Below are positions 22,211 to 48,843 of a DNA stretch of 64,000 bases, one piece after another (the stretch's first letter is position 1; each line of letters starts with the position of its first letter). Source of the stretch: a virus. The stretch lies in the IMG/VR virus record IMGVR_UViG_3300021964_000017. The stretch is one strand, 5' to 3'. Under the pieces are notes generated by a model. It was not told the origin of the DNA. It did not search any database and was given only the letters and a program-made list of their open reading frames with translations. Both the position numbers and the translations under genes were made by a program.

Positions 22211-22335
22211 TTGTTTCGACGCTGACGACGAAGTCGTGCAAATATGTTCTCTGTCCGTTGCCGAATTACAGAATTGATTCTTTTGCGTTTCAATCTAGCT
22301 GCAGTAGACTTTGCTAGTCTTATTGCTCTATCCAT
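22207..22335 (-). CDS. Small very basic protein (42 aa)
   Basis: MDRAIRLAKSTAARLKRKRINSVIRQRTENIFARLRRQRRNK; overlaps both neighbours; below the ORF-track cutoff. Confidence 0.6.
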   Translation of the reverse strand: MDRAIRLAKSTAARLKRKRINSVIRQRTENIFARLRRQRRNK

Positions 22336-22825
22336 ATTTTTTGTCATGTCCTTTACCATCACCATAATCTCCATCATACATGCTAAGAGTTTCTGCTTCG
22401 TAACTTAGATACTGACCAATACGAGTACCAGGCTTAATACGCATTGGACCCACACCTACATGCATAACACCAGCCATCACACCAGAGTATCCAGCATCAT
22501 ACAAACCAGAGGTGAGGAACACGCCATTGCGGTTAAGAGTAGAACGTGTGATGACCCAACCTGCTTCACCACTTGCAACTGTCACTTTGTTTTCCATAAT
22601 GACTTCATAGTCTCCTGGAATAAGATGATAGTATCCATCAGATCCAACATGCATCTCATCAGACCCACGATGAACTTTTTGATCTTCATCAATAATGAAT
22701 TCGGTGCCCTTGATCTTGAAGATCTTACCTACACGTAAGTCAACAGCGTTCGGCTGAACATCTCCATCCTTAACAGCAGTTAAACTAGAATTGTTTTGCT
22801 TACTTGCAATATTAATCATGCTCAT
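22328..22825 (-). CDS. dCTP deaminase / trimeric dUTPase-family protein
   Basis: VQPNAVDLRV, RSTLNRNG, YDAGYSG, PGTRIGQ, YDGDY. Confidence 0.8.
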   Translation of the reverse strand: MSMINIASKQNNSSLTAVKDGDVQPNAVDLRVGKIFKIKGTEFIIDEDQKVHRGSDEMHVGSDGYYHLIPGDYEVIMENKVTVASGEAGWVITRSTLNRNGVFLTSGLYDAGYSGVMAGVMHVGVGPMRIKPGTRIGQYLSYEAETLSMYDGDYGDGKGHDKKYG

Positions 22826-23108
22826 AGTTTGCGCTCTCCCATGCATTTAGAATATTATTAAAACCCATTATGACCCAATCATATGGTGTATCATATTGGA
22901 GGTCAACCCAATTGCGTAGCTCCTGCCACTGCTCTTCGGTTAGATCATCAGTATCATCTACCCCATAATGTTCTTGAACGGTATCCATTGCCCACTCGGT
23001 GAGAGTGTGCTCAATGTTATCAACCCACTTGTGTAGCTTTGGTACATCAAACTCAGACATTAGTTTCCTCCAGATCCAAAGCATGGCATAAGAATAGACT
23101 GTACGCAA
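22812..23108 (-). CDS. Hypothetical acidic protein (start probably MSEFDV, 23060)
   Basis: GGAGG RBS before MSEF. Confidence 0.65.
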   Translation of the reverse strand: MRTVYSYAMLWIWRKLMSEFDVPKLHKWVDNIEHTLTEWAMDTVQEHYGVDDTDDLTEEQWQELRNWVDLQYDTPYDWVIMGFNNILNAWESANYEHD

Positions 23109-23245
23109 TTACTAGAATACGCTTCTGGGTCGATTGCAAATGCTAAAAATAATGGGACTGCGCTAAGTATTAGGATGATCGTAAGAAACGATAGCGGAAG
23201 TCCTCGAAATAGTTTAGTAGACTTGCTCATGATTGTGCCTCCCAT
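23060..23245 (-). CDS. Small membrane protein
   Basis: One TM helix and a Cys pair. Confidence 0.6.
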   Translation of the reverse strand: MGGTIMSKSTKLFRGLPLSFLTIILILSAVPLFLAFAIDPEAYSSNCVQSILMPCFGSGGN

Positions 23246-23251
23246 TTACCT

Positions 23252-23572
23252 TCAACAACCCAAGAAGGGCGCGCGGCCCTCTCGGACAGCATCAAGTTCT
23301 GCTTCCTCTAGATCCAATGCATATAACATTAATACACAATAGTGCATAGCCTTCATAATGTCCTTACGATTCTTACCACCTTTCTTACCGTACCGAGCAA
23401 GATACTTAATCGCTGTATCACGAGACGTAGTCTCCAGCGAACCTAAGGAACGCCAGAAGTCTACAGTCTGAACATCACCATCACCAACATAGTGTTGGCC
23501 ATACGTTCCATCAATATACTCTTGCAAAGCTGCCATAGCTTTGTCTTCATTATATTTGTATTTAATTGTCAT
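23252..23572 (-). CDS. DUF3310 / T7 gp1.7-like nucleotide kinase-like protein
   Basis: YKYNED...TYGQHY...AIKYLARYGKKGG...DIMKAMHY. Confidence 0.7.
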   Translation of the reverse strand: MTIKYKYNEDKAMAALQEYIDGTYGQHYVGDGDVQTVDFWRSLGSLETTSRDTAIKYLARYGKKGGKNRKDIMKAMHYCVLMLYALDLEEAELDAVREGRAPFLGC

Positions 23573-24431
23573 AGTACACTCCTGAATCAGCTGGTAATTG
23601 ATCATCGATATGCCGGCAATTATACATTGCTTTGGCAATCTTGGCAACGTCTGCTGAGTTGTGATCGAAATCTACCTCAATCTCATTCTTACCAGCAATC
23701 AATCCAGTTGGAGAATTATCAAATTGAATATCACACATACCAGCCCACACAGCTGCAGAGCTATCCCAAGAGTCAATCGCCCACAGATACTCTTCCACTA
23801 GACTACATTCGTTAGGACCATCAACCATACCCAGGAAGTGAATCTTCTTATTGTTACCTTTGATTGCATCTAGGATACCACGCTCGTGGAGCTCACGCAT
23901 AAACTTCCAACGAGACATGAATCGTTGTAGCTTATTGTCTTTTTCAACACCATACGCAATTGGGACGGCTAGAATAGAGACACCAATATAATCTACATGC
24001 TCGGACTGAGCTGCCCACTCGAACGCACGAATGAGATCTTCGAGGTCTCCCTCTTCCGATTGAGGAACAAAGAATGTTCCAAACCCAGCCTCTCGTAGCT
24101 CTGGCGCCATCTCAATAGCTTTATCAATAGTTACTTGAGAGGGTTGGCCTGGATAGTCGGACATCACAATGTAGTCAGCTCCGACTTTGGTTCCCATTTC
24201 AATTAGCTTATCGGATGGATACATTTCACGACCCTGCTTGTACATCTCGAAGGCAGAGTTATCCATAATGTTAACATAAGGACTAAGCCCACGAGACAAG
24301 TCGCGATCAGCATACCAACTGGCATACGTCTCGTCTTGCTCGATCAAGTGTGCTAATGTTAAGTGAAAAGGTCGACCTGCTGCAAACAAGTCTAAGTACG
24401 CGGTTGGCGTAATGTGCGCAAATTCAGTCAT
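23562..24431 (-). CDS. dpdA: TGT-fold DNA guanine transglycosylase (DpdA-like)
   Basis: IMDNSAFE, ADYIVMSDYP, FFVPQ, KIHFLGM, IDSWDSS mirror TGT/DpdA motifs; lies in a folE-queD-queE cluster. Confidence 0.7.
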   Translation of the reverse strand: MTEFAHITPTAYLDLFAAGRPFHLTLAHLIEQDETYASWYADRDLSRGLSPYVNIMDNSAFEMYKQGREMYPSDKLIEMGTKVGADYIVMSDYPGQPSQVTIDKAIEMAPELREAGFGTFFVPQSEEGDLEDLIRAFEWAAQSEHVDYIGVSILAVPIAYGVEKDNKLQRFMSRWKFMRELHERGILDAIKGNNKKIHFLGMVDGPNECSLVEEYLWAIDSWDSSAAVWAGMCDIQFDNSPTGLIAGKNEIEVDFDHNSADVAKIAKAMYNCRHIDDQLPADSGVYYDN

Positions 24432-24503
24432 GATATCTCCATAGTTTAAGGTATAGGCAGATTAATCGTCTGCCTATATTATACTTCAAATCAGTTTAAA
24501 AGT

Positions 24504-24734
24504 CTACTGGGCTTGATGAATGTGATGAGGAGGAACTCGATGTGCTGCTTTACCAGTTTCGACATGAGCATAAGACCGACCGCCCATTGACTTCATGCCT
24601 TTATAAGTACCAGTAACTTTTTCGCCTGTTCTCTGATGCGTGAAAGATACTTCTTTGCCCTTCATAGGCTTGAGTTTAGCCTTAGCGGCCTTAACTGCAT
24701 CTTCCTGCAGTGAGTGGTTTTGAAATGATTGCAT
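24504..24734 (-). CDS. Small basic late protein with a capsid-targeting-like N-terminus
   Basis: MQSFQNHSLQE followed by a Lys-rich domain; own late promoter. Confidence 0.65.
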   Translation of the reverse strand: MQSFQNHSLQEDAVKAAKAKLKPMKGKEVSFTHQRTGEKVTGTYKGMKSMGGRSYAHVETGKAAHRVPPHHIHQAQ

Positions 24735-24771
24735 CTTTAAGATCCCATAAGATTAAGTGTATATACAGTCT

Positions 24772-24779
24772 TATTTATA
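24772..24779 (-). promoter_or_regulatory. Late promoter
   Basis: TATAAATA overlapping the dpdL stop. Confidence 0.7.
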
Positions 24780-25158
24780 CATCTTCATATCGCGAAACGG
24801 AACCGTTCTCACCATCTTCTGATACTTCTATTTCAATGGATCGTCCAGGATACTTAGCATTGATAAGTTCTGCAAGCTCGTCTGAAACCATCTCACAAGA
24901 TCTGTAGTCAAGTGTGAGTGTTCCGTCAGAATATAGACGCTCAAGCCAACGCTTAAACTGAATAAACTCAATGTCACGATCATCATGAAAAACCTCAATA
25001 CCCACCCGAAAATGGAAAATGTGCCGATGAGGATAGCCCAGAAAGCTAACATCATCCCAACCACCAGTAGCAAGTTTAGGATCATCTAATGCTGCAGGAT
25101 ACTTATGTATCCCCTCCTTTTTGAATGTTACCCATATTTGATTAAATACTTTTTTCAT
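24775..25158 (-). CDS. dpdL: QueD-paralog T-fold protein, putative CDG decarboxylase (DpdL-type)
   Basis: LGYPHRHIF (LxxxHRHxF) in place of QueD CxxxHGH; DRDIEF, SCEM, VSEDGENG. Confidence 0.7.
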   Translation of the reverse strand: MKKVFNQIWVTFKKEGIHKYPAALDDPKLATGGWDDVSFLGYPHRHIFHFRVGIEVFHDDRDIEFIQFKRWLERLYSDGTLTLDYRSCEMVSDELAELINAKYPGRSIEIEVSEDGENGSVSRYEDV

Positions 25159-25487
25159 TAGCGAATTGCCTCGTATCGGTTACGTTTTACTGAATGTTCA
25201 TAGGGGTTCATGTCGATATTATACTTTGGTCTTGTATAACGAATCAACGCACCCTCTTCAATTTCAATTTGCTGTTTAGTGCATTCTTTAGGTTCTTGAG
25301 CCCAACGAACGGTCCAATCTTGACCAATGGTAATCAGAGCTTCTCGGAACAAGGTAGAACTATATCCCTTCTCCTTCCACTGTCTATGATTCTCTTCAAG
25401 ACCACCTAAATACCATTTAGACGTTGATCCCTGATAGACCACCTCATTTCCATCTAACCATTCATAGATTCCATACTTATACGCCAT
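25158..25487 (-). CDS. GIY-YIG-like nuclease
   Basis: YGIYEW...VVYQGST...H...EGALI...PKYN. Confidence 0.6.
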   Translation of the reverse strand: MAYKYGIYEWLDGNEVVYQGSTSKWYLGGLEENHRQWKEKGYSSTLFREALITIGQDWTVRWAQEPKECTKQQIEIEEGALIRYTRPKYNIDMNPYEHSVKRNRYEAIR

Positions 25488-25695
25488 AACCCTGGCCTTT
25501 CATAATAAAGTTATTCATAGCAAGAATCATACGATCTTTCTTCATGTAAGACAACTGATTAATCAATGTGTAATTGGGTGCGCGCGCATTTTCAATCAAT
25601 GCTTTACAATACGCTTCACACTCATCGCGATCCATAGTTTGGATTGCAGAATAGAATTCAAGCTGCTGTTGTTCTTTGATCTTAGCGTTTTTCAT
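25477..25695 (-). CDS. Hypothetical protein
   Basis: 72-aa coupled ORF. Confidence 0.65.
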   Translation of the reverse strand: MKNAKIKEQQQLEFYSAIQTMDRDECEAYCKALIENARAPNYTLINQLSYMKKDRMILAMNNFIMKGQGYGV

Positions 25696-26222
25696 TATAT
25701 ATAATAAATCCCATACTGTTTTTTTGCTTTGGTAGTATTCAGCTTCGGCATTTCAATTAACTCTACTCCCGCAGTTTCATACATTTCCTTCCAACAGTCA
25801 ACGCCAAAAACGAAGTCCTTTTGAAAATGCTTCAATCGCATATTCTCATCTGCTGTTGTGATGGTTGTTACTAGATTGGTGAACCACATATCAATATAAT
25901 CCTGAAAGGATAATGTGTGTGGTAAACAGAGAATGTGCTCAGCAACATTCTTATGAGTGATGGGATGCTCGACAGCAGTTCTTTGACCGCCTACCGGTTT
26001 GATCCCTTTCTTTTTATTGATAATAGTTTCTAAAGCTGCTTTACTAACAAGGCCTGTCTTATTGCCTCGGAATCCTGCTTCTGTAAGCATACCTTCTATT
26101 TGCCTGCGGGCTCTTGACTTTTGAGTCTTTGATAAGCTATTCCAGTTTTCTTTCACCTGGACATATACACCATATGCCAACTCGTAGTTAAATTTTACGT
26201 CTTCGAAAGTTATCTTCGCCAT
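25695..26222 (-). CDS. Hypothetical early protein
   Basis: 175 aa, own early promoter; VEHP...TTADEN...YETAGVEL. Confidence 0.7.
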   Translation of the reverse strand: MAKITFEDVKFNYELAYGVYVQVKENWNSLSKTQKSRARRQIEGMLTEAGFRGNKTGLVSKAALETIINKKKGIKPVGGQRTAVEHPITHKNVAEHILCLPHTLSFQDYIDMWFTNLVTTITTADENMRLKHFQKDFVFGVDCWKEMYETAGVELIEMPKLNTTKAKKQYGIYYI

Positions 26223-26253
26223 AGGTCACTACTCCATTTTTGATATACCTATA

Positions 26254-26291
26254 GGTATACCATACAGTCGAATAGAAGTCAACAGTTAATT
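26254..26291 (-). promoter_or_regulatory. Early promoter
   Basis: AATTAACTG-TTGACT-17-TATACC. Confidence 0.7.
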
Positions 26292-26293
26292 AA

Positions 26294-26575
26294 TTAAACA
26301 CCAAAACTTTCTCCACAACCACAGTTAGCGGTTGCGTTGGGGTTGATTACTTTAAGGTAGGACCCACCCAACTCTTTCACATAATCAATTGTGCATCCAA
26401 AGATAAACATCTCAGCCATAGGATCAAGCCATAGGTTGTCTATGGTAGGTTCTTTATCAGTAGTGCCCCACACATACTGAAAACCAGCACATCCCCCGCC
26501 TTTGACAGCGAGGGACACATTTGGATCACCAACTTCCAGCATGTATTGCTTTGCTGATTCAGTTAAAGTAATCAT
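26294..26575 (-). CDS. iscA: Iron-sulfur cluster assembly accessory protein, IscA/HesB family
   Basis: ITLTESA, GGGCAGFQY, NPNATANCGCGESF. Confidence 0.92.
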   Translation of the reverse strand: MITLTESAKQYMLEVGDPNVSLAVKGGGCAGFQYVWGTTDKEPTIDNLWLDPMAEMFIFGCTIDYVKELGGSYLKVINPNATANCGCGESFGV

Positions 26576-26772
26576 TTTAGATACTTGTTTACCATCTCTA
26601 GTAGATCATCATATTTAGCTACTTCATCGAGTTCTTTTTCAATCTCCTCAATGATATCACCATTGTTACCAACTCCAACTGGATTGTTAAGCAACACTTC
26701 TACATTTGCTAAGTGTTTATCAACATGACCCTTTGCATGTGATACGAAGCATTCTAATAGGCGTTCTTTCAT
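26572..26772 (-). CDS. Conserved phage hypothetical protein
   Basis: HLANVEVLLNNPVGVG...IEKEL. Confidence 0.75.
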   Translation of the reverse strand: MKERLLECFVSHAKGHVDKHLANVEVLLNNPVGVGNNGDIIEEIEKELDEVAKYDDLLEMVNKYLK

Positions 26773-26930
26773 TGATCTTCCTTCCGTTTATCTACAACTT
26801 CTTCCAACACACCTAGGACTTCTGCTAGGATAATGAATACACCACCCCATAGTAGGCTACCATAGATGAAAGCAGCACCAGCAACAAAGCGCAGGCCACT
26901 CTTAACAAAACTTACATTCATGTGATTCAT
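26769..26930 (-). CDS. Small membrane protein (53 aa)
   Basis: MNHMNVSFVKSGLRFVAGAAFIYGSLLWGGVFIILAEVLGVLEEVV; coupled at both ends. Confidence 0.6.
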   Translation of the reverse strand: MNHMNVSFVKSGLRFVAGAAFIYGSLLWGGVFIILAEVLGVLEEVVDKRKEDQ

Positions 26931-27622
26931 TATACACGATTCCCCGCGAACTGTTGTTGCATTTTAATATAGTCAAGGAATTCATTCTTGACAGATGGAT
27001 TAAAGAACTGACCACGCAGCTCACACGTTTGAGTCAATGAGCTATGAGCCATGATACCACGGTTCTCACAACATCCATGAGTCCCTTGAATATATACAGC
27101 CAAGTCTTTTGCGCCTGTATGTGCTGCAATCTCATTAGCAATGTCTTGCGTAAGCTCTTCTTGCAGAGTCCCACGACGTGCACAGTGCTGAGCTATACGA
27201 GTGTATTTAGACAAACCAATTACTTTAACACTAGGAATCAGACCAATATATGCTACACCTGATACCGGCTGGTGGTGATGTGAACACATAGACTTAATCT
27301 CAGAACGTACAACAATCATACCACCATAACGAGTATCAATATCGTCGTTGGGGAATGCTGTAACAGATGGCTGAGGGTCATAACGACCAGCCATAGTCTC
27401 GTTTACATACATCTTAGCCAGACGACGAGCTGTACCCATAGAGTTAGGATCTTCATTCTGATCAATAATCAAAGAGCTAAGGACACCACGAAACTTCTCT
27501 TCGAGCTCATCAATAAGCTCCCATTTCTCTTCTTCACTAATAAACTCCGCGATGTTGTCATTAGCCCAATAGCGAGCTCCTGCTTCATCAATGCGGTCCT
27601 TAATTACATCAGAAATGTTCAT
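26930..27622 (-). CDS. folE: GTP cyclohydrolase I
   Basis: SMCSHHHQP, VIGLSKYTRI, RRGTLQEELT, HGCCENRG. Confidence 0.95.
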   Translation of the reverse strand: MNISDVIKDRIDEAGARYWANDNIAEFISEEEKWELIDELEEKFRGVLSSLIIDQNEDPNSMGTARRLAKMYVNETMAGRYDPQPSVTAFPNDDIDTRYGGMIVVRSEIKSMCSHHHQPVSGVAYIGLIPSVKVIGLSKYTRIAQHCARRGTLQEELTQDIANEIAAHTGAKDLAVYIQGTHGCCENRGIMAHSSLTQTCELRGQFFNPSVKNEFLDYIKMQQQFAGNRV

Positions 27623-27641
27623 TTGTTTTCCTTTTACCATA

Positions 27642-28079
27642 TTAATCTTTCTCCCAAGGAAATACTATCCAACGATCGTCGCTCAAAGTCAACGCTGCAG
27701 TTGCTGGATGTGTAGTTTCGAGCTTCTGGACTAGAGAGATAAACATTACATTGGATCGAGCTCCATGATATGCTTTACTAATCTCACTAAATGTACGCCC
27801 AGTATCATTGATATCATCCACAAAGACAACACGAGATCCTGTGTCAATCAATTGTTGAATGTAACTATTATGCTCACACTTATTGACGTCTCGCGTCTGC
27901 CATATAATCGTTTGCAGTGGTCGATCTAGGTGATGCGACAAGTGGAGAGCTGGAAGAAGACCTCCTCTTGTAATACCTACAATAACGTCAGGTTTAAACT
28001 TAGATACATCATGAACAAGATTCATGTTCATTGATTCTACATCATTGTAGTCCAAATAGATTTTATTTTTAAACTTCAT
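27642..28079 (-). CDS. Purine (xanthine-guanine-type) phosphoribosyltransferase
   Basis: VGITRGGLLPA, VFVDDINDTGRT, WIVFPWE. Confidence 0.88.
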   Translation of the reverse strand: MKFKNKIYLDYNDVESMNMNLVHDVSKFKPDVIVGITRGGLLPALHLSHHLDRPLQTIIWQTRDVNKCEHNSYIQQLIDTGSRVVFVDDINDTGRTFSEISKAYHGARSNVMFISLVQKLETTHPATAALTLSDDRWIVFPWEKD

Positions 28080-29020
28080 TATGTACCAATCGCATTACCA
28101 AAGAGATACACATGCATGCGACCAGATACGTTATAGCCACGCTCAAATGCCATCTTAGCTACATCACCTGCTGTCTCTTCTTGCTCTTCGAGTCTGGCAC
28201 CTGTTGGCATGATCCAGATTGGATACTTAACACCAGCATCACGGAACAATGTTACAACTTCATCTAGCTCGTCCCATTGATCTTGCTCAGGTCCTACAAC
28301 AAACTTTAGTTGACCTTTATCAGACACATCGTAGTACGATTTAACAATCTCTGGCTTGATGGCTTTCTCACGTTTCTCGCCAGCTACAGTCCATAGCTTA
28401 GGTGATACAGAGAAGAATGCTTCTGGCTTAAACAGAGGTGACTTAACCAGCTTAACAAAGTCATCTGATAGACGCTGTGTACCATTAGTCTCCCATGTAA
28501 TCGACGAAGGTAGGTTCTCTGCAGCGTTATAAGACGTCTCTGCAATAGGTCCACCAGGCATAATAGTCAATGCATCGTAGATGTCAAGGAAAGCCATCTG
28601 AGATAGTTTCATCAAAGGCTCACCACCAGTAATACACAAATGATTGTGATGACCAGACAAAGGATGACGGAACCAACCTTCTGGGTTGTGTTCATTCTTC
28701 ATAATGTCTACGAGCTTCTGAGCCAACTCAGGTCCTGTAGCTTGACCCATCAAGTGCTTATACTTCTTAGACCAAGTATATGACGAGTCACACCCTTTCT
28801 CCCACACAGGAAGATCTTCAACACGTTCTACTTTAGATGCATCAAACTCTGCATAAGGCAACTCGTATGTCTCAGGCTTAGTCGGAAACTTCTGACCGAA
28901 GCCATCACATTGTAAGTTACACAAGAAGAATCTTATCCAGGCAGTAGGGACACCAGTGTAGTGTCCCTCACCTTGAATCGAATGGAAGATTTCACTATAC
29001 GTGTATTTCCTATCCGTCAT
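28079..29020 (-). CDS. queE: 7-carboxy-7-deazaguanine synthase (radical SAM)
   Basis: SEIFHSIQGEG, CNLQC...CDS, ITGGEP, ETNGT, SVSPKL, RMHVYLFGN. Confidence 0.92.
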   Translation of the reverse strand: MTDRKYTYSEIFHSIQGEGHYTGVPTAWIRFFLCNLQCDGFGQKFPTKPETYELPYAEFDASKVERVEDLPVWEKGCDSSYTWSKKYKHLMGQATGPELAQKLVDIMKNEHNPEGWFRHPLSGHHNHLCITGGEPLMKLSQMAFLDIYDALTIMPGGPIAETSYNAAENLPSSITWETNGTQRLSDDFVKLVKSPLFKPEAFFSVSPKLWTVAGEKREKAIKPEIVKSYYDVSDKGQLKFVVGPEQDQWDELDEVVTLFRDAGVKYPIWIMPTGARLEEQEETAGDVAKMAFERGYNVSGRMHVYLFGNAIGT

Positions 29021-29206: not shown

Positions 29207-29674
29207 CTAAGCATTGTATGCAATGCCACTAGTGGCATTATAGATGGCGCTATTGGCTCCATGCTCTGCACATTCCACAGAGACAACCCAACAACGATTA
29301 TCTGTCATTTCTCTTACTAATTTATCTGCAAAGTTGTATGCATGCTTAGCAAACATCTCTACACCCACACCATCTAGAATCGTAAGCTCGGCTAGTCCAT
29401 TACTTGCTAGAAACTCAAACTTAGGAAGATGAGGATCTGTGCTATCCAATACTACCTTATGATCGAATGTATCTTCAAGCCAGGCTTTCAGAGGTTTCAA
29501 CCCACCAAAGTCTACTACCCAATTGCGTTCATCCAGCTCAGCAGCTTGGAATGTAAACTTGAATGCTAGTGAATATCCATGCAAGAACTTGCAATGTGAA
29601 TGAGCGTTTGGTTGTCTAAAACAAGCGCTGAGGCCAATATTATGGCCATATGTTTTTGTACTACAATAAGGCAC
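29207..29674 (-). CDS. queD: 6-carboxytetrahydropterin synthase
   Basis: HCKFLHGYS, WVVDFGGLK, FDHK, EHGANSAIY. Confidence 0.93.
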   Translation of the reverse strand: MPYCSTKTYGHNIGLSACFRQPNAHSHCKFLHGYSLAFKFTFQAAELDERNWVVDFGGLKPLKAWLEDTFDHKVVLDSTDPHLPKFEFLASNGLAELTILDGVGVEMFAKHAYNFADKLVREMTDNRCWVVSVECAEHGANSAIYNATSGIAYNA

Positions 29675-32570: not shown

Positions 32571-32977
32571 AGTTTTCCTTCTCTACGCATCTCCGCTCTA
32601 ATCTTGGTGGCAGATATGTCGTGTATTTCTTTGCCTAAGTCGTGCTCTGTAAATGTATATCCTACACCACGACCGTAGCTAATATCAACAATGTTGGGAA
32701 CCACTATTATAACATATTCTTCGCCTAAAGTAAACCCTGCTTCTTTAAGTCCAGCAACAATATTTAACTTCACTTTATCCATTTGAAATGGATTGTCATC
32801 TTGTACTGCAGTACGTCCACCGCCTGCGTCATAGTTAACAATACCTGCTACATCTCTAATCTGAATACACACTTGACCTGTTATTGCATGACAACGTCTA
32901 AACAATTCAGTGTGGCCATCATGCCACGGTTGCCATCGTCCCAACATCTGCACTGTGGGTAATTGACTGTTAAACAT
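32567..32977 (-). CDS. HIGH-motif nucleotidyltransferase (cytidylyltransferase-like)
   Basis: GRWQPWHDGH, YGRGVGY, ISATKIR. Confidence 0.8.
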   Translation of the reverse strand: MFNSQLPTVQMLGRWQPWHDGHTELFRRCHAITGQVCIQIRDVAGIVNYDAGGGRTAVQDDNPFQMDKVKLNIVAGLKEAGFTLGEEYVIIVVPNIVDISYGRGVGYTFTEHDLGKEIHDISATKIRAEMRREGKL

Positions 32978-33392
32978 TTGGAAAATCCTTACGCATGTTA
33001 ATAACAAATGAATCGACTTCATCATTAGTCATAAACTTATCAACAACGTATGTTTTGTGAATTGGTTCTTCAAAGATTTTATTTGTATCTTTAAACCTTC
33101 CTGCAACAATAGTATCCATCCAAATAGTAACATCAGCATTAAATACAGATCTTGTTGTCGCCAGCGGACAGACAAAGTCACATATCACAGTACGATTGTA
33201 ACTCTTTTCCAAGTCAGCAAGTACTTTCATTCGATATGCTTGTTTGAGTCTAGCCGCCTCAGAGAACTCCCAATCATTTGCCATCTCACGAATCTTATCC
33301 GCATTGTACCAAGCGCAATTCAATCTTGTTTGAAGTTGCTCAGCTAACCACGTCTTACCAGACCCAGGTAGGCCCATAACTAGAATTTTCAT
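32970..33392 (-). CDS. cysC: Adenylylsulfate kinase-like P-loop kinase
   Basis: MGLPGSGKT, NADKIR, DWEFS..AR, DFVCP, FEEP. Confidence 0.7.
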   Translation of the reverse strand: MKILVMGLPGSGKTWLAEQLQTRLNCAWYNADKIREMANDWEFSEAARLKQAYRMKVLADLEKSYNRTVICDFVCPLATTRSVFNADVTIWMDTIVAGRFKDTNKIFEEPIHKTYVVDKFMTNDEVDSFVINMRKDFPNV

Positions 33393-33676: not shown

Positions 33677-34721
33677 CAATGCTCTCCACAATTTCATCCA
33701 TGGACACTAGAGACTGGAATCCAATCTGATATTGCTTCTTTAAGAACTCTTTAAAATCTGTGTCAGCAAAGACTGGATCCCAGAAGGCTTGATCATTAGT
33801 GGCATCGAACCGTACTTTAGGTCCAACTTCTCCAGTAGCTTTATTAACCACAGCATACCAGCCGTTAGCAGGCTTAGTAACATAGCCGCCAGCGAGAGCG
33901 CAATCGAGCAAGCCAGAATACTTGCGGACACCCCCATCCCAAGACACTGTAATAGGAATCTTAGACTTTTCTTTAACATAACGAGATTTCTCCACATTGA
34001 TTACAAAATGATACCCTTGGATCTCAGTACCTTTCTTGTCTTGCTGACGACCCAAGATCCAGATATTATCTGCACTATAATAGATACCGGTACCACCACC
34101 CACAACGTCTTTAGGGAATAGACCAATCTCTTTGTAGGTGTGGTTGATAGCTAACAAAGGAATATTCTTCATTGTCAGATATGGAGTTGTCATACGAAAC
34201 AACCCTTTGAGAGCCTTTGCTCGAGACATATCTGCAACAGACTTTTCATTCTGTGCATCTTCTAGTTCTTTCTTCGATGCCATGTTACCAATAGAGTCAA
34301 TAACAATAATGACATCATCATCGCGGTCTAGCTCTTCAAGCTGACCAATCATATCGAACTTTAGTTCTTCAACATTGGTAATCGGTGTATGCAACACACG
34401 GTCTGTATCAATGCCAAACTGTTCGAAGTAGCTCTGTGGACTACCAAATTCACTGTCATAGAACAGCATTACGGCGTCTGGATGCGCCTTTAGGTAGGCA
34501 CCTGCCATCAGTAGTGCAAAGGAAGTCTTGAAGTGCTTAGATGGCCCAGCTAGCACTGTTAACCCAGCTGCTAGACCTCCATCTACTGATCCAGACAGTG
34601 CGACATTGATCATCGGCACGTCTGTAGGTGTAAAATCTTTTTCGTTAAAGAACTTTGAATCAGACAGGATATCCGTCGATTTGATCTTGGAGTTCTTCTT
34701 TAGTTTGTCCATAATTGACAT
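33669..34721 (-). CDS. uvsX: RecA-like recombinase
   Basis: LAGPSKHFKT, YDSEFG, DSIGN, GGGTGIYYSAD. Confidence 0.96.
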   Translation of the reverse strand: MSIMDKLKKNSKIKSTDILSDSKFFNEKDFTPTDVPMINVALSGSVDGGLAAGLTVLAGPSKHFKTSFALLMAGAYLKAHPDAVMLFYDSEFGSPQSYFEQFGIDTDRVLHTPITNVEELKFDMIGQLEELDRDDDVIIVIDSIGNMASKKELEDAQNEKSVADMSRAKALKGLFRMTTPYLTMKNIPLLAINHTYKEIGLFPKDVVGGGTGIYYSADNIWILGRQQDKKGTEIQGYHFVINVEKSRYVKEKSKIPITVSWDGGVRKYSGLLDCALAGGYVTKPANGWYAVVNKATGEVGPKVRFDATNDQAFWDPVFADTDFKEFLKKQYQIGFQSLVSMDEIVESIDG

Positions 34722-35496
34722 GTTGTTCAATCTCCCGATTGTCTAGTTCATATTGTGATCTGTAATCATTGTTAATCATAATACATTTCTCCAGTAATGT
34801 CAACTTATCGCTGTGCTTTGTAAACGCAGAAAGATCCTTTGGAAAGCATGCTCCTCCAAATCCTTGCTTGCCATCAAACCCTGGAACTTTTGTATGAGAT
34901 GATCCAATACGACTATCAGCAGCAACTGCTTTTATTACTGTCATAAAGTTTGAGTCTGTTGCTGATATTGTATCGTACAGCTGATTAAAGAATGTTACTT
35001 TTAGTGCAAGGAAGCTATTGATTGTATACTTTACATAGCTTGCCTCTGCTGCTGTCATGTGGTAGAACTCTGCTTCATCACAAAGACTGTTGTGACGATA
35101 GAACTGTTCCACTGTAATTGTATCTAATGGGTAACCGCCAAGGATGTGAAACTTTGCGGACACAAACTGTTCATTAGCAGCTTTCTCTGTTAAGAACTCC
35201 GGATTGTATACAACATTATATTGCTCGATAATGTCAGGAGTTACTGTAGACTTTACAACTACTAAGGGGTGATCCTTTACTCGTTGAAGAACGCTATCAA
35301 GGATAGATGTATCAATACCGCCGTCACTCCCCATAGGGGTAGGTACACACACAAATACAATATCATACTGTAGTAAAGTATCGTCAGGAATTTCTGTATC
35401 ATATTTTGGATCCACAATGTACCTGGGTATGTTGCTAAATGCATAGTCAACTGCCTGGCCGACAAACCCATGGCCAATAATTAAAATGTTAGGCAT
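34660..35496 (-). CDS. ugd: UDP-glucose/GDP-mannose dehydrogenase family, lacking the C-terminal domain
   Basis: IIGHGFVG, CVPTP, KSTV, YNPEFL, GFGGACFPKD. Confidence 0.85.
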   Translation of the reverse strand: MPNILIIGHGFVGQAVDYAFSNIPRYIVDPKYDTEIPDDTLLQYDIVFVCVPTPMGSDGGIDTSILDSVLQRVKDHPLVVVKSTVTPDIIEQYNVVYNPEFLTEKAANEQFVSAKFHILGGYPLDTITVEQFYRHNSLCDEAEFYHMTAAEASYVKYTINSFLALKVTFFNQLYDTISATDSNFMTVIKAVAADSRIGSSHTKVPGFDGKQGFGGACFPKDLSAFTKHSDKLTLLEKCIMINNDYRSQYELDNREIEQHVNYGQTKEELQDQIDGYPV

Positions 35497-35923
35497 TACT
35501 TACTCTCGCTCTCAGATCGCTGGTAGAAAACCTATGATCTCGTTTGTTAAAATATATCTCAATACCTCGTGCTGCGCATGTAGCTCTACCAGTAAATGTA
35601 CCATGTTTATATTCTTCACCGATGATCCGTACATCAATGTGAAATGTATTCAAGATATCTTCAAGGTCTGTTTCAGTCTGATATGGTATGATTTCATCAA
35701 CATATTTTACTGCTGATAGCTGTATGTATCTTTCTACCAAAGTCTGGACTGGTTTGTTCTTTTCTTTTCTATCAACAGATGGGTCAACTTGAATCCCACA
35801 TATCAAATGATCGCATTGAGACTTAGCTTCACGCAACATCATAATATGGCCAGCATGTAGTAGATCAAACGTACTAAACGTGATTCCTACAGTTGCTTTA
35901 GAATCTTCCATGTATCTTTCCAA
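35489..35923 (-). CDS. tagD: Glycerol-3-phosphate cytidylyltransferase-like protein
   Basis: TFDLLHAGH, ER...AVKYVDEI, RDHRFSTS. Confidence 0.8.
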   Translation of the reverse strand: MERYMEDSKATVGITFSTFDLLHAGHIMMLREAKSQCDHLICGIQVDPSVDRKEKNKPVQTLVERYIQLSAVKYVDEIIPYQTETDLEDILNTFHIDVRIIGEEYKHGTFTGRATCAARGIEIYFNKRDHRFSTSDLRARVSNA

Positions 35924-35995
35924 TCTTTAACATGATGTACTATACCACCAATTTCATCAATGGCCAACAATATTTCATAGTTGTTTCCCCCCAAA

Positions 35996-36184
35996 TCACG
36001 ATCCCCACTTTTCACGTCCTTGAGTTTGCATTCTTACATGCCTTGTTGGAAGTTCAGCTTCTTGCTCGCCTAAATTTTCCCAACCTTCGTTTAGCTCTAA
36101 CCATCGATTCAGTTGTTTGCTATCGTCGAATGTCATTTCAGTAACCATGCCATTGTTACGATTTATAATAGATACTTTTTTCAT
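35996..36184 (-). CDS. Hypothetical protein
   Basis: 62-aa coupled ORF. Confidence 0.6.
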   Translation of the reverse strand: MKKVSIINRNNGMVTEMTFDDSKQLNRWLELNEGWENLGEQEAELPTRHVRMQTQGREKWGS

Positions 36185-36528
36185 TTTGTATGACCTACAG
36201 TTTCACGGACAATGTCATTATGCGAAAATTCTGCCCAATATAATTCAAAGGCAACGCCATCTTCTAGACACTCAAATTGGTGATACACACCAGGCTTAAC
36301 TTTAGTATACATTCCAGGCTCAAGAATAGTTTCATCCACCAAGTCGTAGTCTTTCTGCCATACACGAATAAGCATACGGCCGGATTCAACATAAAAGCCA
36401 TTCCACTTAAACTCATGTAGATGTTTTGAGCATACTCCACCTTTATTCATTTCAATCCGATGGAACTCTAAAGCACCATTGGCCTCAAGCAGCTCTGTTT
36501 GTCCCCAAACTTTTCCAAAAATACCCAT
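36181..36528 (-). CDS. Cupin (sugar isomerase-like) protein
   Basis: GKVWG, CSKHLH, FYVESG, PGVYHQF. Confidence 0.8.
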   Translation of the reverse strand: MGIFGKVWGQTELLEANGALEFHRIEMNKGGVCSKHLHEFKWNGFYVESGRMLIRVWQKDYDLVDETILEPGMYTKVKPGVYHQFECLEDGVAFELYWAEFSHNDIVRETVGHTK

Positions 36529-36592
36529 ACTTAATCCTTATCCCCACCATCCTAATTTAACTGTGTTATGTATAATACTCGTGTATGTGTGT

Positions 36593-36859
36593 CTACATCA
36601 CTGTCCGTGTAGTATGTTGTGATTTTATTACCTGCTCATACATAAAGAATAGTTGCTCAAACTTCCACTCATATAGCTGTTGCATACCTATCAAGGCGTT
36701 CATCATTTCATCGTGTGTAGGCTCACGTTCACCGTCACCTATCTGCTTGAACACTGTCTCAAGGTCATTACAAACGTGCCAACAATCCATTATAGGTTGT
36801 TCAAGGTCGTGTAGTTGCATTCCACTTCTCCATATCATATGGTGTATTAATTTCAACAC
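36593..36859 (-). CDS. Hypothetical protein (start uncertain)
   Basis: [16 protein letters not shown]...[10 protein letters not shown]. Confidence 0.6.
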
Positions 36860-36897
36860 CGTTAAAGTCTACTTTACGCAAATGTACTTTGTGTCCA

Positions 36898-37686
36898 TTA
36901 GCAATCCATCTTAGTTGTTAATTCCTGTATTGTATATTGATACCGTACAATATCTTCAACAACTTTTTCAAAATCTTCTAAGCGTATCATATTTGGCCCA
37001 TCGCTTGGAGCATTATCTGGATCAGGATGCACTTCTAAGAAGAAGTTACTAACACCCATAGCAGAGGCAGCGCGAGCAAGACCTGGAACGTAATCACGAT
37101 TACCGCCACTAGATTTCCCATTGCCTCCTGGCTTTTGAACAGCGTGGGTAACATCAAAAACAATAGGTACATCGTAATTGTCAAGCATATACTGAATCCC
37201 AGTATAATCAACGACCAAAGTATTATAGCCAAAACTCGTCCCTCTTTCAGTAATCCAGACTTCTTTAGCGCCTTGCGTCTTACTGAGGATACCATCAACA
37301 TCCCATGGTGCTAAGAACTGCCCTTTCTTAATGTTGACAATACATTCTGTAGCACAAGCAGCTCTGATCAAATCTGTCTGTCTAGACAAGAACGCAGGAA
37401 TTTGTAGTACGTCTACAAAGGAGCGACATCTACTGACATGTCCTTCTGTGTGAACATCCGTAAAGATCTTAACCCCAAGAGTTTCTTTTAAAGCCTGTAG
37501 ATCAGGAAGTCCAGCGGATATTCCCACACCACGTTGACCGCTCATGGATGTGCGGTTGGCTTTATCAAAACTTGCTTTAAAGTAATAATCGATATCATAC
37601 TTGTCGCACACACGTTGACACTCTTTAGCAATCTCAGCGCTCTGAGCCAGTGTTTCGTGTTGACATGGTCCTGCAATGATTCTCAT
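36898..37686 (-). CDS. kdsA: KDO 8-phosphate synthase
   Basis: IAGPC, KASFDKANRTS, QIPAFLSRQTDL, NIKKGQF, ERGTSFGY, SDGPN. Confidence 0.95.
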   Translation of the reverse strand: MRIIAGPCQHETLAQSAEIAKECQRVCDKYDIDYYFKASFDKANRTSMSGQRGVGISAGLPDLQALKETLGVKIFTDVHTEGHVSRCRSFVDVLQIPAFLSRQTDLIRAACATECIVNIKKGQFLAPWDVDGILSKTQGAKEVWITERGTSFGYNTLVVDYTGIQYMLDNYDVPIVFDVTHAVQKPGGNGKSSGGNRDYVPGLARAASAMGVSNFFLEVHPDPDNAPSDGPNMIRLEDFEKVVEDIVRYQYTIQELTTKMDC

Positions 37687-47040: not shown

Positions 47041-48098
47041 GCTATCTCTAGGGTTTGTGCCTCTATCATCAATCCACTCATCTCAACCTTAATCCGATCC
47101 TTATCTAGATCGGTATCAACAGCATCGATATAGCTGTTGAGAAGGGTAGGAGTATCATCCACTGAAACGCTTTGATCGTCAACAGCTGATCCGATAAACT
47201 CGTTAAAGTTTTCTGCGATCTTTAGTTCAAGGATGTTGCGGTTCTGGATGCGATCGATAAATCTATCGAATGTGAATGTATCAGACTTGTTAATAACAAC
47301 AATCTTTACAAAGTGATTTTCTATACCTGAAAGATCATAGTGAAGATAGTCGTGCTTAGTGTCATCATACCTAATCCGATAGTGTAGAGTATGAGGATTA
47401 CGAACGGCTTCGATAGTTCTGGTTTCTGTATCAAGGATGTGGAAATACTTAGCATCATGTGCATCATTCCAAAAGAACTCCATTTGTGAACCCAGATACA
47501 TTATATTGTCTTGTTCTGATTTTGTATGAAAGTGACCAGACAATACTCGCTCAAACCGTTTAAAGATAGATCGATCTAGTCCGTGCTCACACTTAATACC
47601 TTTCATCATCTCATATCCTTGGATATCAAAATGACCACCTAGCCAATCACACTTTGCGTTTGCAATGAAGTCTAGTGATTGTTTCTCGTTGGCATCATCA
47701 ATCCATGGGACTAGGCCTATCTTCATAGATCCATATTCCATAACCTTAGGCTCTTGAATGATTGTTACCTCATTCATATAATGACCCAATAGTTCCTTGA
47801 GAGAGTTTAGCTCACCAGTGTTCTTATAGAATGTATCATGGTTCCCACGAATAATATCCATGGTAATGCCATTATCCCTTAACGGTTTAAGGAAGTGATT
47901 ACGGTTGCGGTTAAGAGCGCGGAAGTTAATAAATTTCCTGTTATCATAGTAATCACCAAGATGCACAATATGCTTAATATCATGTTCCAGAAGATAAGGA
48001 AAAAATACATCAGAATAAAATTTCTCTGCATTATTGAGAAATACGTCAGAGCTATTGCGGATACCACAATGAGTGTCATTAAGAAGGGCAATTTTCAT
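47037..48098 (-). CDS. gp47: Recombination endonuclease nuclease subunit (SbcD/Mre11-like)
   Basis: DTHCG, LGDYYD, GNHD, SGHFH. Confidence 0.96.
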   Translation of the reverse strand: MKIALLNDTHCGIRNSSDVFLNNAEKFYSDVFFPYLLEHDIKHIVHLGDYYDNRKFINFRALNRNRNHFLKPLRDNGITMDIIRGNHDTFYKNTGELNSLKELLGHYMNEVTIIQEPKVMEYGSMKIGLVPWIDDANEKQSLDFIANAKCDWLGGHFDIQGYEMMKGIKCEHGLDRSIFKRFERVLSGHFHTKSEQDNIMYLGSQMEFFWNDAHDAKYFHILDTETRTIEAVRNPHTLHYRIRYDDTKHDYLHYDLSGIENHFVKIVVINKSDTFTFDRFIDRIQNRNILELKIAENFNEFIGSAVDDQSVSVDDTPTLLNSYIDAVDTDLDKDRIKVEMSGLMIEAQTLEIA

Positions 48099-48843
48099 GA
48101 TCAAGTATGTTCCATTTTGGCGTCCAGCCTAGTTTCAACAGTGCTTCGATATTAGCTTTTGTGTGTACACGTTCTCCGTTAGGATTTGCATCACGCCATT
48201 CTCCTTGGAAGTTCATAACCTTAGCTACTTCTTCCACTGGTGTAGAGTGACCAGTGCCAATATCATAAACACGTTGACTCATTATAGCTGAATTGAAGTT
48301 GGAAAGCAACACTTGAATTGCTTCGACAACATCGTTTACATGAACAAAGTCGCGAAAGTGCCCTCGATTGATATATTCAACTTCACCTCGTTTAAACTTC
48401 ATGAATAACATATCATCACGACCAGGCCAGATAGTATGAAATCTCATACCAATAGCTGGATAGTCTTCTGCTTGAATCTCATTCATCTTCTTAGTAGCGG
48501 CATATGGATTACCCCACCACTCGTATGCATTAGAAGAAGAAGCATATAAGATGTTACTATCATTTAGCTCAGAGAATGCTAGCATATGACGCATACCACC
48601 AACATTAACTTCCTCATACAGTTCTGGCGCATCAAATGAAGGTCTGACTCCAGCTAGAGCTGCAAGATGAATAATAGTATCTATAGGTTTAGATTCATCA
48701 TGAAGTTCTGCCCAATGTTCCCAATTGCGGACGTCTTTATCCTCTCCAAAGGTTACAACAGGATATCCTTTACCAACTAGATGTTTTACTAGCCGGCTTC
48801 CGACCATACCATCAGAACCTGTAATCAACAACCGCATAATCAA
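48079..48843 (-). CDS. NAD-dependent epimerase/dehydratase
   Basis: ITGSDGMVG, HLAALAGVR, ASSS, YAATK, RDFVHVND. Confidence 0.9.
   Translation of the reverse strand: MIMRLLITGSDGMVGSRLVKHLVGKGYPVVTFGEDKDVRNWEHWAELHDESKPIDTIIHLAALAGVRPSFDAPELYEEVNVGGMRHMLAFSELNDSNILYASSSNAYEWWGNPYAATKKMNEIQAEDYPAIGMRFHTIWPGRDDMLFMKFKRGEVEYINRGHFRDFVHVNDVVEAIQVLLSNFNSAIMSQRVYDIGTGHSTPVEEVAKVMNFQGEWRDANPNGERVHTKANIEALLKLGWTPKWNILDHENCPS

Follow-up and report, generated by a model that had tools for sequence, protein, structure and literature searches.

Candidate nucleotide-metabolism partners of the transglycosylase DpdA3 in a T4-like phage and a possible nucleotide-level route to 7-deazaguanine DNA

Gene Content of the Locus

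The DNA analyzed here, a 64,000-nucleotide viral stretch (IMG/VR record IMGVR_UViG_3300021964_000017; referred to below as the window), belongs to a T4-like phage: it holds homologues of gp23, gp20, gp18, the terminase, gp43, gp44, and gp45 together with those of gp46/47, UvsX, UvsW, and gp41. From 29.7 down to 22.3 kb it carries a cluster of genes for the synthesis and use of 7-deazaguanine, all of them on the minus strand. Three open reading frames (ORFs) in this cluster, those of a phosphoribosyltransferase (PRTase), a DUF3310 protein, and a dUTPase-like protein, had been taken by a first-pass annotation to suggest that the modified base is handled at the nucleotide level. The region gave no match by megablast to 50,697 phage records. 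The Pfam scan covered 54 window ORFs; outside it lie about 30 others of at least 100 aa, most of them within the first 16 kb.

The cluster begins with QueD (6-carboxy-tetrahydropterin synthase, PTPS family; 29207-29674; PF01242, E = 8e-16), followed by a QueE-like radical SAM enzyme, the 7-carboxy-7-deazaguanine (CDG) synthase (28079-29020), which has no Pfam match and was identified by phrog_2076 'QueE-like radical SAM' (E = 1e-52). The next gene encodes a Gpt/XGPRT-like 6-oxopurine PRTase (27642-28079; PF00156, E = 1.7e-11; phrog_8995, E = 5e-23). It had been described as lying between queE and folE and abutting both, and the coordinates bear this out, with a 1-nt overlap with the QueE stop and a 1-nt gap to the start of FolE (GTP cyclohydrolase I; 26930-27640; PF01227, E = 1.3e-37). 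Further downstream lies DpdL, a QueD paralogue of 127 aa and the proposed CDG decarboxylase (24775-25158; 33% identity to the phiST DpdL, E = 2e-15). Beyond it, we found a DpdA3-like transglycosylase of 289 aa with the barrel of the tRNA-guanine transglycosylase (TGT) fold (23562-24431), homologous to the DpdA3 proteins of phiST, immuto, and CP220, and then a DUF3310 protein of ~106 aa (23252-23572; PF11753, E = 3.4e-8; phrog_480 and phrog_21972). The last gene of the cluster encodes a member of the Dcd/dUTPase superfamily, a candidate deoxynucleoside triphosphate (dNTP) pyrophosphatase (22328-22846; PF22769, E = 1.2e-15), and the comparison of homologues places its likely start at 22825. The reported overlap of the DUF3310 gene with the dpdA stop is real and amounts to 11 nt. 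The dUTPase/dCTP deaminase-family gene said to come after it is also present, but it does not follow directly, as two small ORFs lie between: one at 23060-23245 and orf98, a small acidic ORF of 98 aa (22812-23108) found in part of the lineage.

The published phiST system for 7-deazaguanine (dDG) consists of FolE, QueD, QueE, DpdL, and DpdA3 (Cui, Hutinet et al., NAR 2023; PMC10516641). Because homologues of DpdL and DpdA3 are present and no QueC was found among the 54 scanned ORFs, the region is best described, from its gene content, as a predicted cluster of the phiST type for the dDG modification of DNA, carried by a T4-like phage. The signature L-x3-HRHxF, which in DpdL replaces the CxxxHGH of the QueD-like T-fold (PMC10516641), is present as LGYPHRHIF. 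The likeness to phiST covers the same enzymes with no QueC found, the HRHxF motif, and the DpdA3 homologue, and it extends to an NTP pyrophosphatase inside the cluster and a PRTase homologue in the genome. The differences are that phiST is a siphovirus, that its pyrophosphatase is MazG instead of a Dcd/dUTPase-fold protein, and that only in the window is a DUF3310 gene coupled to DpdA3 and the PRTase placed inside the que operon. In addition, the DpdA3 proteins of the two phages share only 28% identity (over 245 aa with CGPG_00065; BLASTP, E = 3e-9). A 175-aa ORF of the window, considered as a relative of phiST CGPG_00066, proved unrelated on comparison.

The DpdA3-like Protein Has a TGT Fold

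The DpdA3-like protein has no match in Pfam. It is tied to the named DpdA3 proteins by phmmer cross-matches, and the profile of its family matches immuto at 6e-51 and CP220 at 6e-37. About 1,900 metagenomic homologues, likewise without a Pfam domain, form 275 clusters at 50% identity, and residues D57, R174, H198, and D223 are invariant in 79 diverse sequences of the family.

The AlphaFold model (predicted local distance difference test score, 94.7) has a barrel fold, and the 50 best Foldseek matches in the PDB consist entirely of TGTs (ArcTGT and the enzymes of bacteria and humans) and Cap10 (E from ~1e-8 to 1e-7; template modeling score ~0.5). Cap10, judging from the title of its entry, is presumably part of a complex with a 7-deazaguanine-modified protein. 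In the model, D57 (DNSAFE) and D223 (WDSS), candidates for the two catalytic aspartates, lie at the ends of barrel strands. The HxxG...DSS stretch aligns with the DpdA of VpKK5 at a low probability. The C-terminal Zn-binding subdomain of TGT and bacterial DpdA, with its Cys/His motif, was not found in the protein, which ends after the helix 262-278; its few Cys residues are not kept in the homologues of RHph_I1_18 or D479, and none falls in a conserved column of the family. The net charge of about -25 lends weak side support to a nucleotide-level role. The sole outcome of sequence and profile searches of the PDB, a match to a DUF89 phosphatase at the DNSxFE motif (E = 0.03), was dropped as marginal compared with the clear match to the TGT fold.

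The DUF3310 and Dcd-like Proteins

The alignment of 28 homologues confirmed that the DUF3310 protein starts at the ATG at 23572, inside TATGACAATTAA, and not at the listed TTG at 23647. The gene appears, from its arrangement, to be translationally coupled to DpdA3. The earlier description of this gene as DUF3310/gp1.7-like is right as far as the domain is concerned, but the protein corresponds to the C-terminal domain only of T7 gp1.7 (residues ~117-183 of 196), with a marginal pairwise similarity (E = 0.12). What the two share is the DUF3310 domain and the motif K-Y-x2-R-x-G-K-K; the window protein is about half the size of gp1.7, and the full-length architecture of ~196 aa was not found in it, as residues 1-116 have no counterpart. 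The protein gave weak matches to 'nucleotide kinase' phrogs. Across its family, 20 polar or aromatic residues are invariant, including the Gly/Lys-rich loop K-Y-x2-R-x-G-K-K-x-G, which offers weak side support for the nucleotide-level route. Searches of the PDB by sequence, profile, and Foldseek returned no match for the DUF3310 protein, the best structural likeness (Z = 6.2) being to generic helical hairpins.

The Dcd-like protein scores 20.8 bits against PF00692 (dUTPase), which is below the 22-bit cut-off, and its nearest solved structure is 9w59, a 'probable dUTPase'. It shares the fold family and the RS(T), YDxGY, and Q motifs with archaeal-type dUTPases and dCTP deaminases (PDB 9w59 and 1xs4), and R101, S102, D117, and Q145 of these motifs are invariant in its family, D117 being the candidate for the Asp of motif III of trimeric dUTPases. 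It differs in the catalytic glutamate of Dcd (E138 of the E. coli enzyme), which was not found: the HMMER alignment to 1xs4 has Gly at this position, the family as a whole G or A, and 1xs4 itself Ala, presumably because it is an E138A mutant. These features suggest that the deaminase glutamate has been lost and the hydrolase motifs kept. The protein also differs in its distribution. A tblastn search of the 50,697 phage records gave exactly four matches, the same four as for the DpdA3-like protein, so that among these records it is limited to phages with this DpdA3. Three genomes, that of D479 and two from IMG/VR rated 100% complete, encode besides it another dUTPase, which is canonical and scores better.

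Kinase and NTP Hydrolase Genes Accompany DpdA3

The order DpdL, (orf76), DpdA3, DUF3310, (orf98), Dcd-like was found in all 80 IMG/VR loci compared, in which the DpdA3 proteins are 54-94% identical and the DUF3310 gene usually overlaps the end of DpdA3. The two genes form a single DpdA3::DUF3310 gene in Rhizobium phage RHph_I1_18, and such fusions recur in five different clusters at 50% identity. In the Vibrio phages D479 and Bakedbeans and in Aeromonas phage Ahp1_CNU-2021, DUF3310 is replaced after DpdA3 by a kinase of the deoxynucleoside monophosphate kinase (DNMK) type, the T4 gp1 family. The Dcd-like gene comes directly after this kinase in D479 and Ahp1 and ~5 kb downstream in Bakedbeans. 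The DpdA3-linked DNMK kinase is the sole copy in each genome, and its distribution is likewise restricted; because it has no close homologue in the other phage records, it is not the usual gp1 orthologue found in relatives of these phages.

Other lineages of DpdA3 appear, from their gene orders, to repeat the pattern of pyrophosphatase, DpdA3, and kinase with unrelated folds. In CP220, an HD+AAA_33 gene, DpdA3, and an AAA_28 kinase follow one another. The order in immuto_2-6A is PRA-PH (MazG-like), one gene, DpdA3, one gene, DpdN, AAA_28, and QueF. In phiST, FolE, MazG, DpdL, one gene, and DpdA3 lie together, and PRTase, DNMK, one gene, and ribonucleotide reductase (RNR) are found elsewhere in the genome. 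Brevundimonas phage StAshley has QueC, QueD, QueE, one gene, DpdA3, DNA polymerase, one gene, two RNR genes, DNMK, FolE, and PRTase. In VpKK5, the one phage with a DpdA1/2-type enzyme that was examined, neither a kinase nor an NTP hydrolase lies beside DpdA; a control scan of IMG/VR with the VpKK5 DpdA returned only VpKK5 itself.

Taken together, the three genes flagged by the first-pass annotation are very probably linked in function to the dpd cluster. That annotation would have been contradicted by an equal occurrence of these genes in phages without dpd genes. Neither the PRTase nor the Dcd-like gene shows such a distribution; as a domain, DUF3310 is widespread.

Several observations concern the surroundings of DpdA3 in the relatives. 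The small basic orf76 (76 aa, pI 10.1; 24504-24734), located between DpdL and DpdA3, has no family match and is kept in most relatives. In D479 (L003:8695-8898) and in about eight IMG/VR loci, its place just upstream of DpdA3 is occupied by small ORFs that share a segment with a protein of RHph_I1_18 annotated as 'Appr-1-p processing enzyme' (L002:7335-8159), which has no Pfam match. A distant DpdA3 homologue (L117:12-584) was seen in a contig of a pol-A phage with the order QueD, QueE, one gene, DpdA3, FolE, and ThyX; a full-size DUF3310 protein of 190 aa is encoded there 4.4 kb upstream of it.

A 6-Oxopurine-Type PRTase Found in Deazaguanine Phages

The nearest solved relatives of the window PRTase are the purine PRTase of P. 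horikoshii, GpT-2 of S. solfataricus, and xanthine-guanine PRTase (XGPRT) of E. coli, the PDB matches being 1vdm (E = 2e-16), 4z1o, and 1a95. The signature of 6-oxopurine PRTases is present as VFVDDINDTG, with the phosphoribosyl pyrophosphate (PRPP) motif, the acidic pair, and the Asp of D-T-G, together with a C-terminal aromatic residue. Residues G39, G40, D88, D89, D92, T96, and W137 are invariant across 14 phage homologues, and we take D92 to be the Asp that contacts the purine N7 in hypoxanthine-guanine PRTase (HGPRT) and XGPRT.

All 33 tblastn matches of the PRTase lie in phages with deazaguanine genes, where this was checked. They come from the CP220 and phiST groups, immuto, Brevundimonas phages, cyanophage BUCT-ZZ01, and, weakly, VpKK5. 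In the relatives, 25 of 26 placements of the gene are among QueE, QueD, and FolE. At the same time, it is in the cluster in only 15 of the 27 relatives' loci that span the que region, and it lies ~8 kb away in one relative. Four complete genomes have the DpdL-DpdA3-kinase-Dcd-like block but no PF00156 domain, and the PRTase therefore appears to be a dispensable, optional accessory. Its cellular relatives that were found are stand-alone enzymes of sphingomonads, encoded away from any que genes.

A small purine-type PRTase encoded with homologues of FolE, QueD, and QueE recalls TubE and ToyH of the tubercidin and toyocamycin pathways, of which TubE is a CDG-specific PRTase (PMC6112128); the likeness is one of gene context alone. 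The phage enzyme differs from them in resembling the archaeal purine PRTase and E. coli XGPRT, in keeping the presumed N7-contacting Asp, and in being dispensable in relatives. A contig scan for the Streptomyces toy/tub loci gave no match, but the peptide pattern used was narrow, which makes this result uninformative.

Two phages with PRTase-like sequences deserve mention. In VpKK5, a PRTase::FolE fusion considered from a tblastn match (E = 3e-4) was not supported by Pfam. The FolE of this phage (L094:5998-6900) has an N-terminal extension of 116 aa with a weak likeness to the window PRTase and no Pfam PRTase match. Synechococcus phage BUCT-ZZ01 (L093) carries QueE, PRTase, one gene, QueD, FolE, and then a glycosyltransferase-like gene, and a search of its entire genome with the DpdA3 profile gave no match.

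A Late-Promoter Motif Precedes the DpdA3 Block

A T4-type late-promoter motif, TATAAATA, is located on the minus strand at 24772-24779, at the stop of DpdL and just upstream of the block formed by orf76, DpdA3, DUF3310, and the Dcd-like gene. Of 74 relatives, 39 have the motif too, and because its distance from the DpdL stop varies among them, it is not a coding artefact. The window as a whole contains 18 motifs of the T4 late type, compared with ~6 expected.

Other Genes of the Cluster and Its Neighborhood

The remaining genes of the cluster, all on the minus strand, lie between FolE and DpdL. Two small ORFs (26769-26930 and 26572-26772) separate FolE from the gene of an IscA/HesB-like Fe-S assembly protein (26294-26575; PF01521, E = 1.2e-9), and three ORFs with no function given (25695-26222, 25477-25695, and 25158-25487) separate the latter from DpdL. 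The IscA/HesB-like gene, which here lies inside the que cluster, recurs in several relatives, and its product is probably a helper of the radical SAM enzyme QueE.

Genes for ThyX, a methyltransferase, gp41, and a P-loop kinase are located upstream of the cluster. The kinase (32970-33392, minus strand) is small, AAA_18/APS-kinase-like, and matched by phrog_10255 'kinase'; it lies between UvsX and gp41, is kept in one relative (L013), and may add one more nucleotide kinase to the pathway. Sugar-nucleotide genes at 34660-37686 on the minus strand (UDP-glucose/GDP-mannose dehydrogenase-like, cytidylyltransferase-like, and of the DAHP/KDO8P-synthase family) adjoin UvsX and gp43. A NAD-dependent epimerase is encoded at 48079-48843.

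Discussion

From the gene identities, folds, fusions, synteny, and exclusive co-occurrence observed here, we infer every substrate and every direction of flow in the following pathway. FolE, QueD, and QueE would convert GTP to CDG and DpdL would convert CDG to 7-deazaguanine, as suggested by their family membership and by the work of Cui et al. (2023). The Dcd-like enzyme would hydrolyze dGTP to dGMP, on which DpdA3 would exchange the base, so that dGMP and 7-deazaguanine would give the 7-deaza mononucleotide (dDGMP) and guanine. The DUF3310 protein, replaced in other phages by the DNMK or AAA_28 kinase, would phosphorylate dDGMP through dDGDP to dDGTP, which gp43 would polymerize. Guanine would be returned by the PRTase through GMP to GTP for FolE. 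Such a nucleotide-level route via DpdA3, with the PRTase as a guanine salvage enzyme, is the best single reading that we can offer, and it is put forward tentatively. It carries with it the proposal, to be held with the same reserve, that DpdA3 enzymes might be mononucleotide (dGMP) base exchangers and not DNA transglycosylases, which together with a dGTP pyrophosphatase and a deoxynucleoside monophosphate (dNMP) kinase would build a pool of 7-deaza-dGTP. In the literature searched, we found no description of a pre-replicative route for 7-deazaguanine, and DpdA3 was treated only by Cui et al. (2023).

The block of DpdA3, DUF3310, and the Dcd-like gene would mirror the logic of T4 gp56/gp42/gp1. 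In T4, the dCTPase gp56, the dCMP hydroxymethylase gp42, and the dNMP kinase gp1 form a pre-replicative module, and PurZ/MazZ/DatZ of the Z-genome phages form another. The likeness lies in the three-part grouping seen beside DpdA3, with one enzyme that hydrolyzes a dNTP, one that changes the base, and one that serves as a dedicated dNMP kinase, and it includes the gp1-family kinase that takes the slot after DpdA3 in D479, Ahp1, and Bakedbeans. Unlike in T4, the base changer predicted from the genes would be a transglycosylase with the TGT fold, one that exchanges the base as a whole instead of decorating it.

Several points weigh against this route. Characterized TGT and DpdA enzymes work on polynucleotides, and we know of no precedent for a mononucleotide substrate of a TGT-fold enzyme, no purine-specific member of the dUTPase/Dcd fold, and no enzyme activity for DpdA3, the Dcd-like subfamily, or a DUF3310-only protein. 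The N-terminal half of gp1.7 has no counterpart in the DUF3310 protein, and the four-helix model of this protein resembles no kinase of solved structure. The 80 IMG/VR loci represent one related lineage and are not independent observations. In addition, the pre-replicative enzymes of T4 are the products of early genes, and a T4-late-type motif stands directly upstream of the DpdA3 block; because TATAAATA is kept in 39 of the 74 relatives at variable offsets, the block is predicted to be at least partly late-expressed.

The late motif and the nucleic acid substrates of the characterized TGT/DpdA family are in keeping with the published model, in which DpdA3 puts 7-deazaguanine into finished DNA after replication. 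Cui et al. (2023) found DpdA in every 7-deazaguanine phage and proposed post-replicative insertion (PMC10516641). Under this model, the kinase-like and dUTPase-like genes would serve general dNTP supply, pool sanitation, or a lowering of dGTP that favors the exchange, the DUF3310 protein would be a partner or regulator of a DNA-acting enzyme, and the PRTase, whose features suit this role, would salvage the excised guanine. Such an arrangement leaves unexplained why three unrelated types of kinase and three unrelated types of NTP hydrolase are found beside DpdA3, why DpdA3 is recurrently fused to DUF3310, and why a Dcd-like paralogue exclusive to DpdA3 phages is kept beside a canonical dUTPase. 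The missing Zn subdomain and the strongly negative charge of the DpdA3-like protein also fit poorly with it. DNA insertion of 7-deazaguanine has been demonstrated for no DpdA3 in the literature, and neither DpdA3 nor DpdL could be made to work in E. coli (PMC10516641). The same paper reports that G replacement is complete in DpdA3 phages and cites the 7-amido-7-deazaguanine (ADG) nucleoside in CP220-infected cells, findings that we count in favor of the nucleotide-level route. On balance, the post-replicative model is a strong competitor, which we regard as somewhat less likely than the nucleotide-level DpdA3 route and rank next after it.

The first-pass annotation was upheld by comparative genomics in tying the flagged genes to the dpd cluster, but the nucleotide-level step is more likely to be carried out by DpdA3 itself. 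It had offered two roles for the PRTase. In the one, the deaza base would be phosphoribosylated and phosphorylated for direct incorporation; as spelled out here, the PRTase would act like TubE and join CDG or 7-deazaguanine to PRPP, kinases and RNR would lead on to dDGTP, and DpdA3 would only patch residual G. TubE provides a precedent for this; several unrelated phage lineages have the PRTase gene surrounded by those of QueE, QueD, and FolE, and its neighbors in phiST and Brevundimonas are a DNMK kinase and RNR. Against this stand the four complete genomes that have the full block and no PRTase domain, the lack of an in-cluster gene in 12 of the 27 relatives, and the stand-alone sphingomonad relatives. 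The kinase-like gene of the window lineage, moreover, is coupled, fused, or displaced beside DpdA3 and not beside the PRTase. A search for an RNR of the PF02867 type found none in two of the genomes, that of RHph_I1_18 and one from IMG/VR rated 100% complete, an absence that bears on the PRTase-first route and not on exchange by DpdA3. What survives of this proposal is the nucleotide-level idea; the PRTase-first route itself seems improbable and comes third. The other role, the recycling of guanine released by DpdA to GTP for FolE, suits the enzyme better. We consider salvage the likelier role, ahead of an entry step of the TubE kind, because the PRTase is apparently dispensable, because the Asp that we take to contact N7 in 6-oxopurine PRTases is invariant, and because phages with a PRTase make different final bases, guanine being the sole by-product common to them.

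Phage replication modules often mix nucleotide genes, and ThyX, a methyltransferase, and a P-loop kinase are indeed nearby, so the PRTase, DUF3310, and dUTPase-like genes might be ordinary nucleotide genes that merely happen to lie near the dpd genes. We consider such a coincidence highly improbable in view of their exclusive joint occurrence among 50,697 phage records, the invariant synteny, the fusions, and the translational coupling predicted.

The DpdA3 branch is the only one that gives 100% replacement, and it has never been reconstituted; the pyrophosphatase/transglycosylase/kinase block names candidates for its missing parts. Should the nucleotide-level DpdA3 route prove wrong, the block would keep its value as a definition of the obligate partners of DpdA3. 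If the route is true, the complete replacement of G in phages of the phiST, CP220, and immuto types would be pre-replicative, contrary to the published conclusion, and would be a fourth purine/pyrimidine replacement pathway built on dNTP pools. It would also extend TGT-fold chemistry to free nucleotides and provide an enzymatic route to 7-deaza-dGTP analogues.

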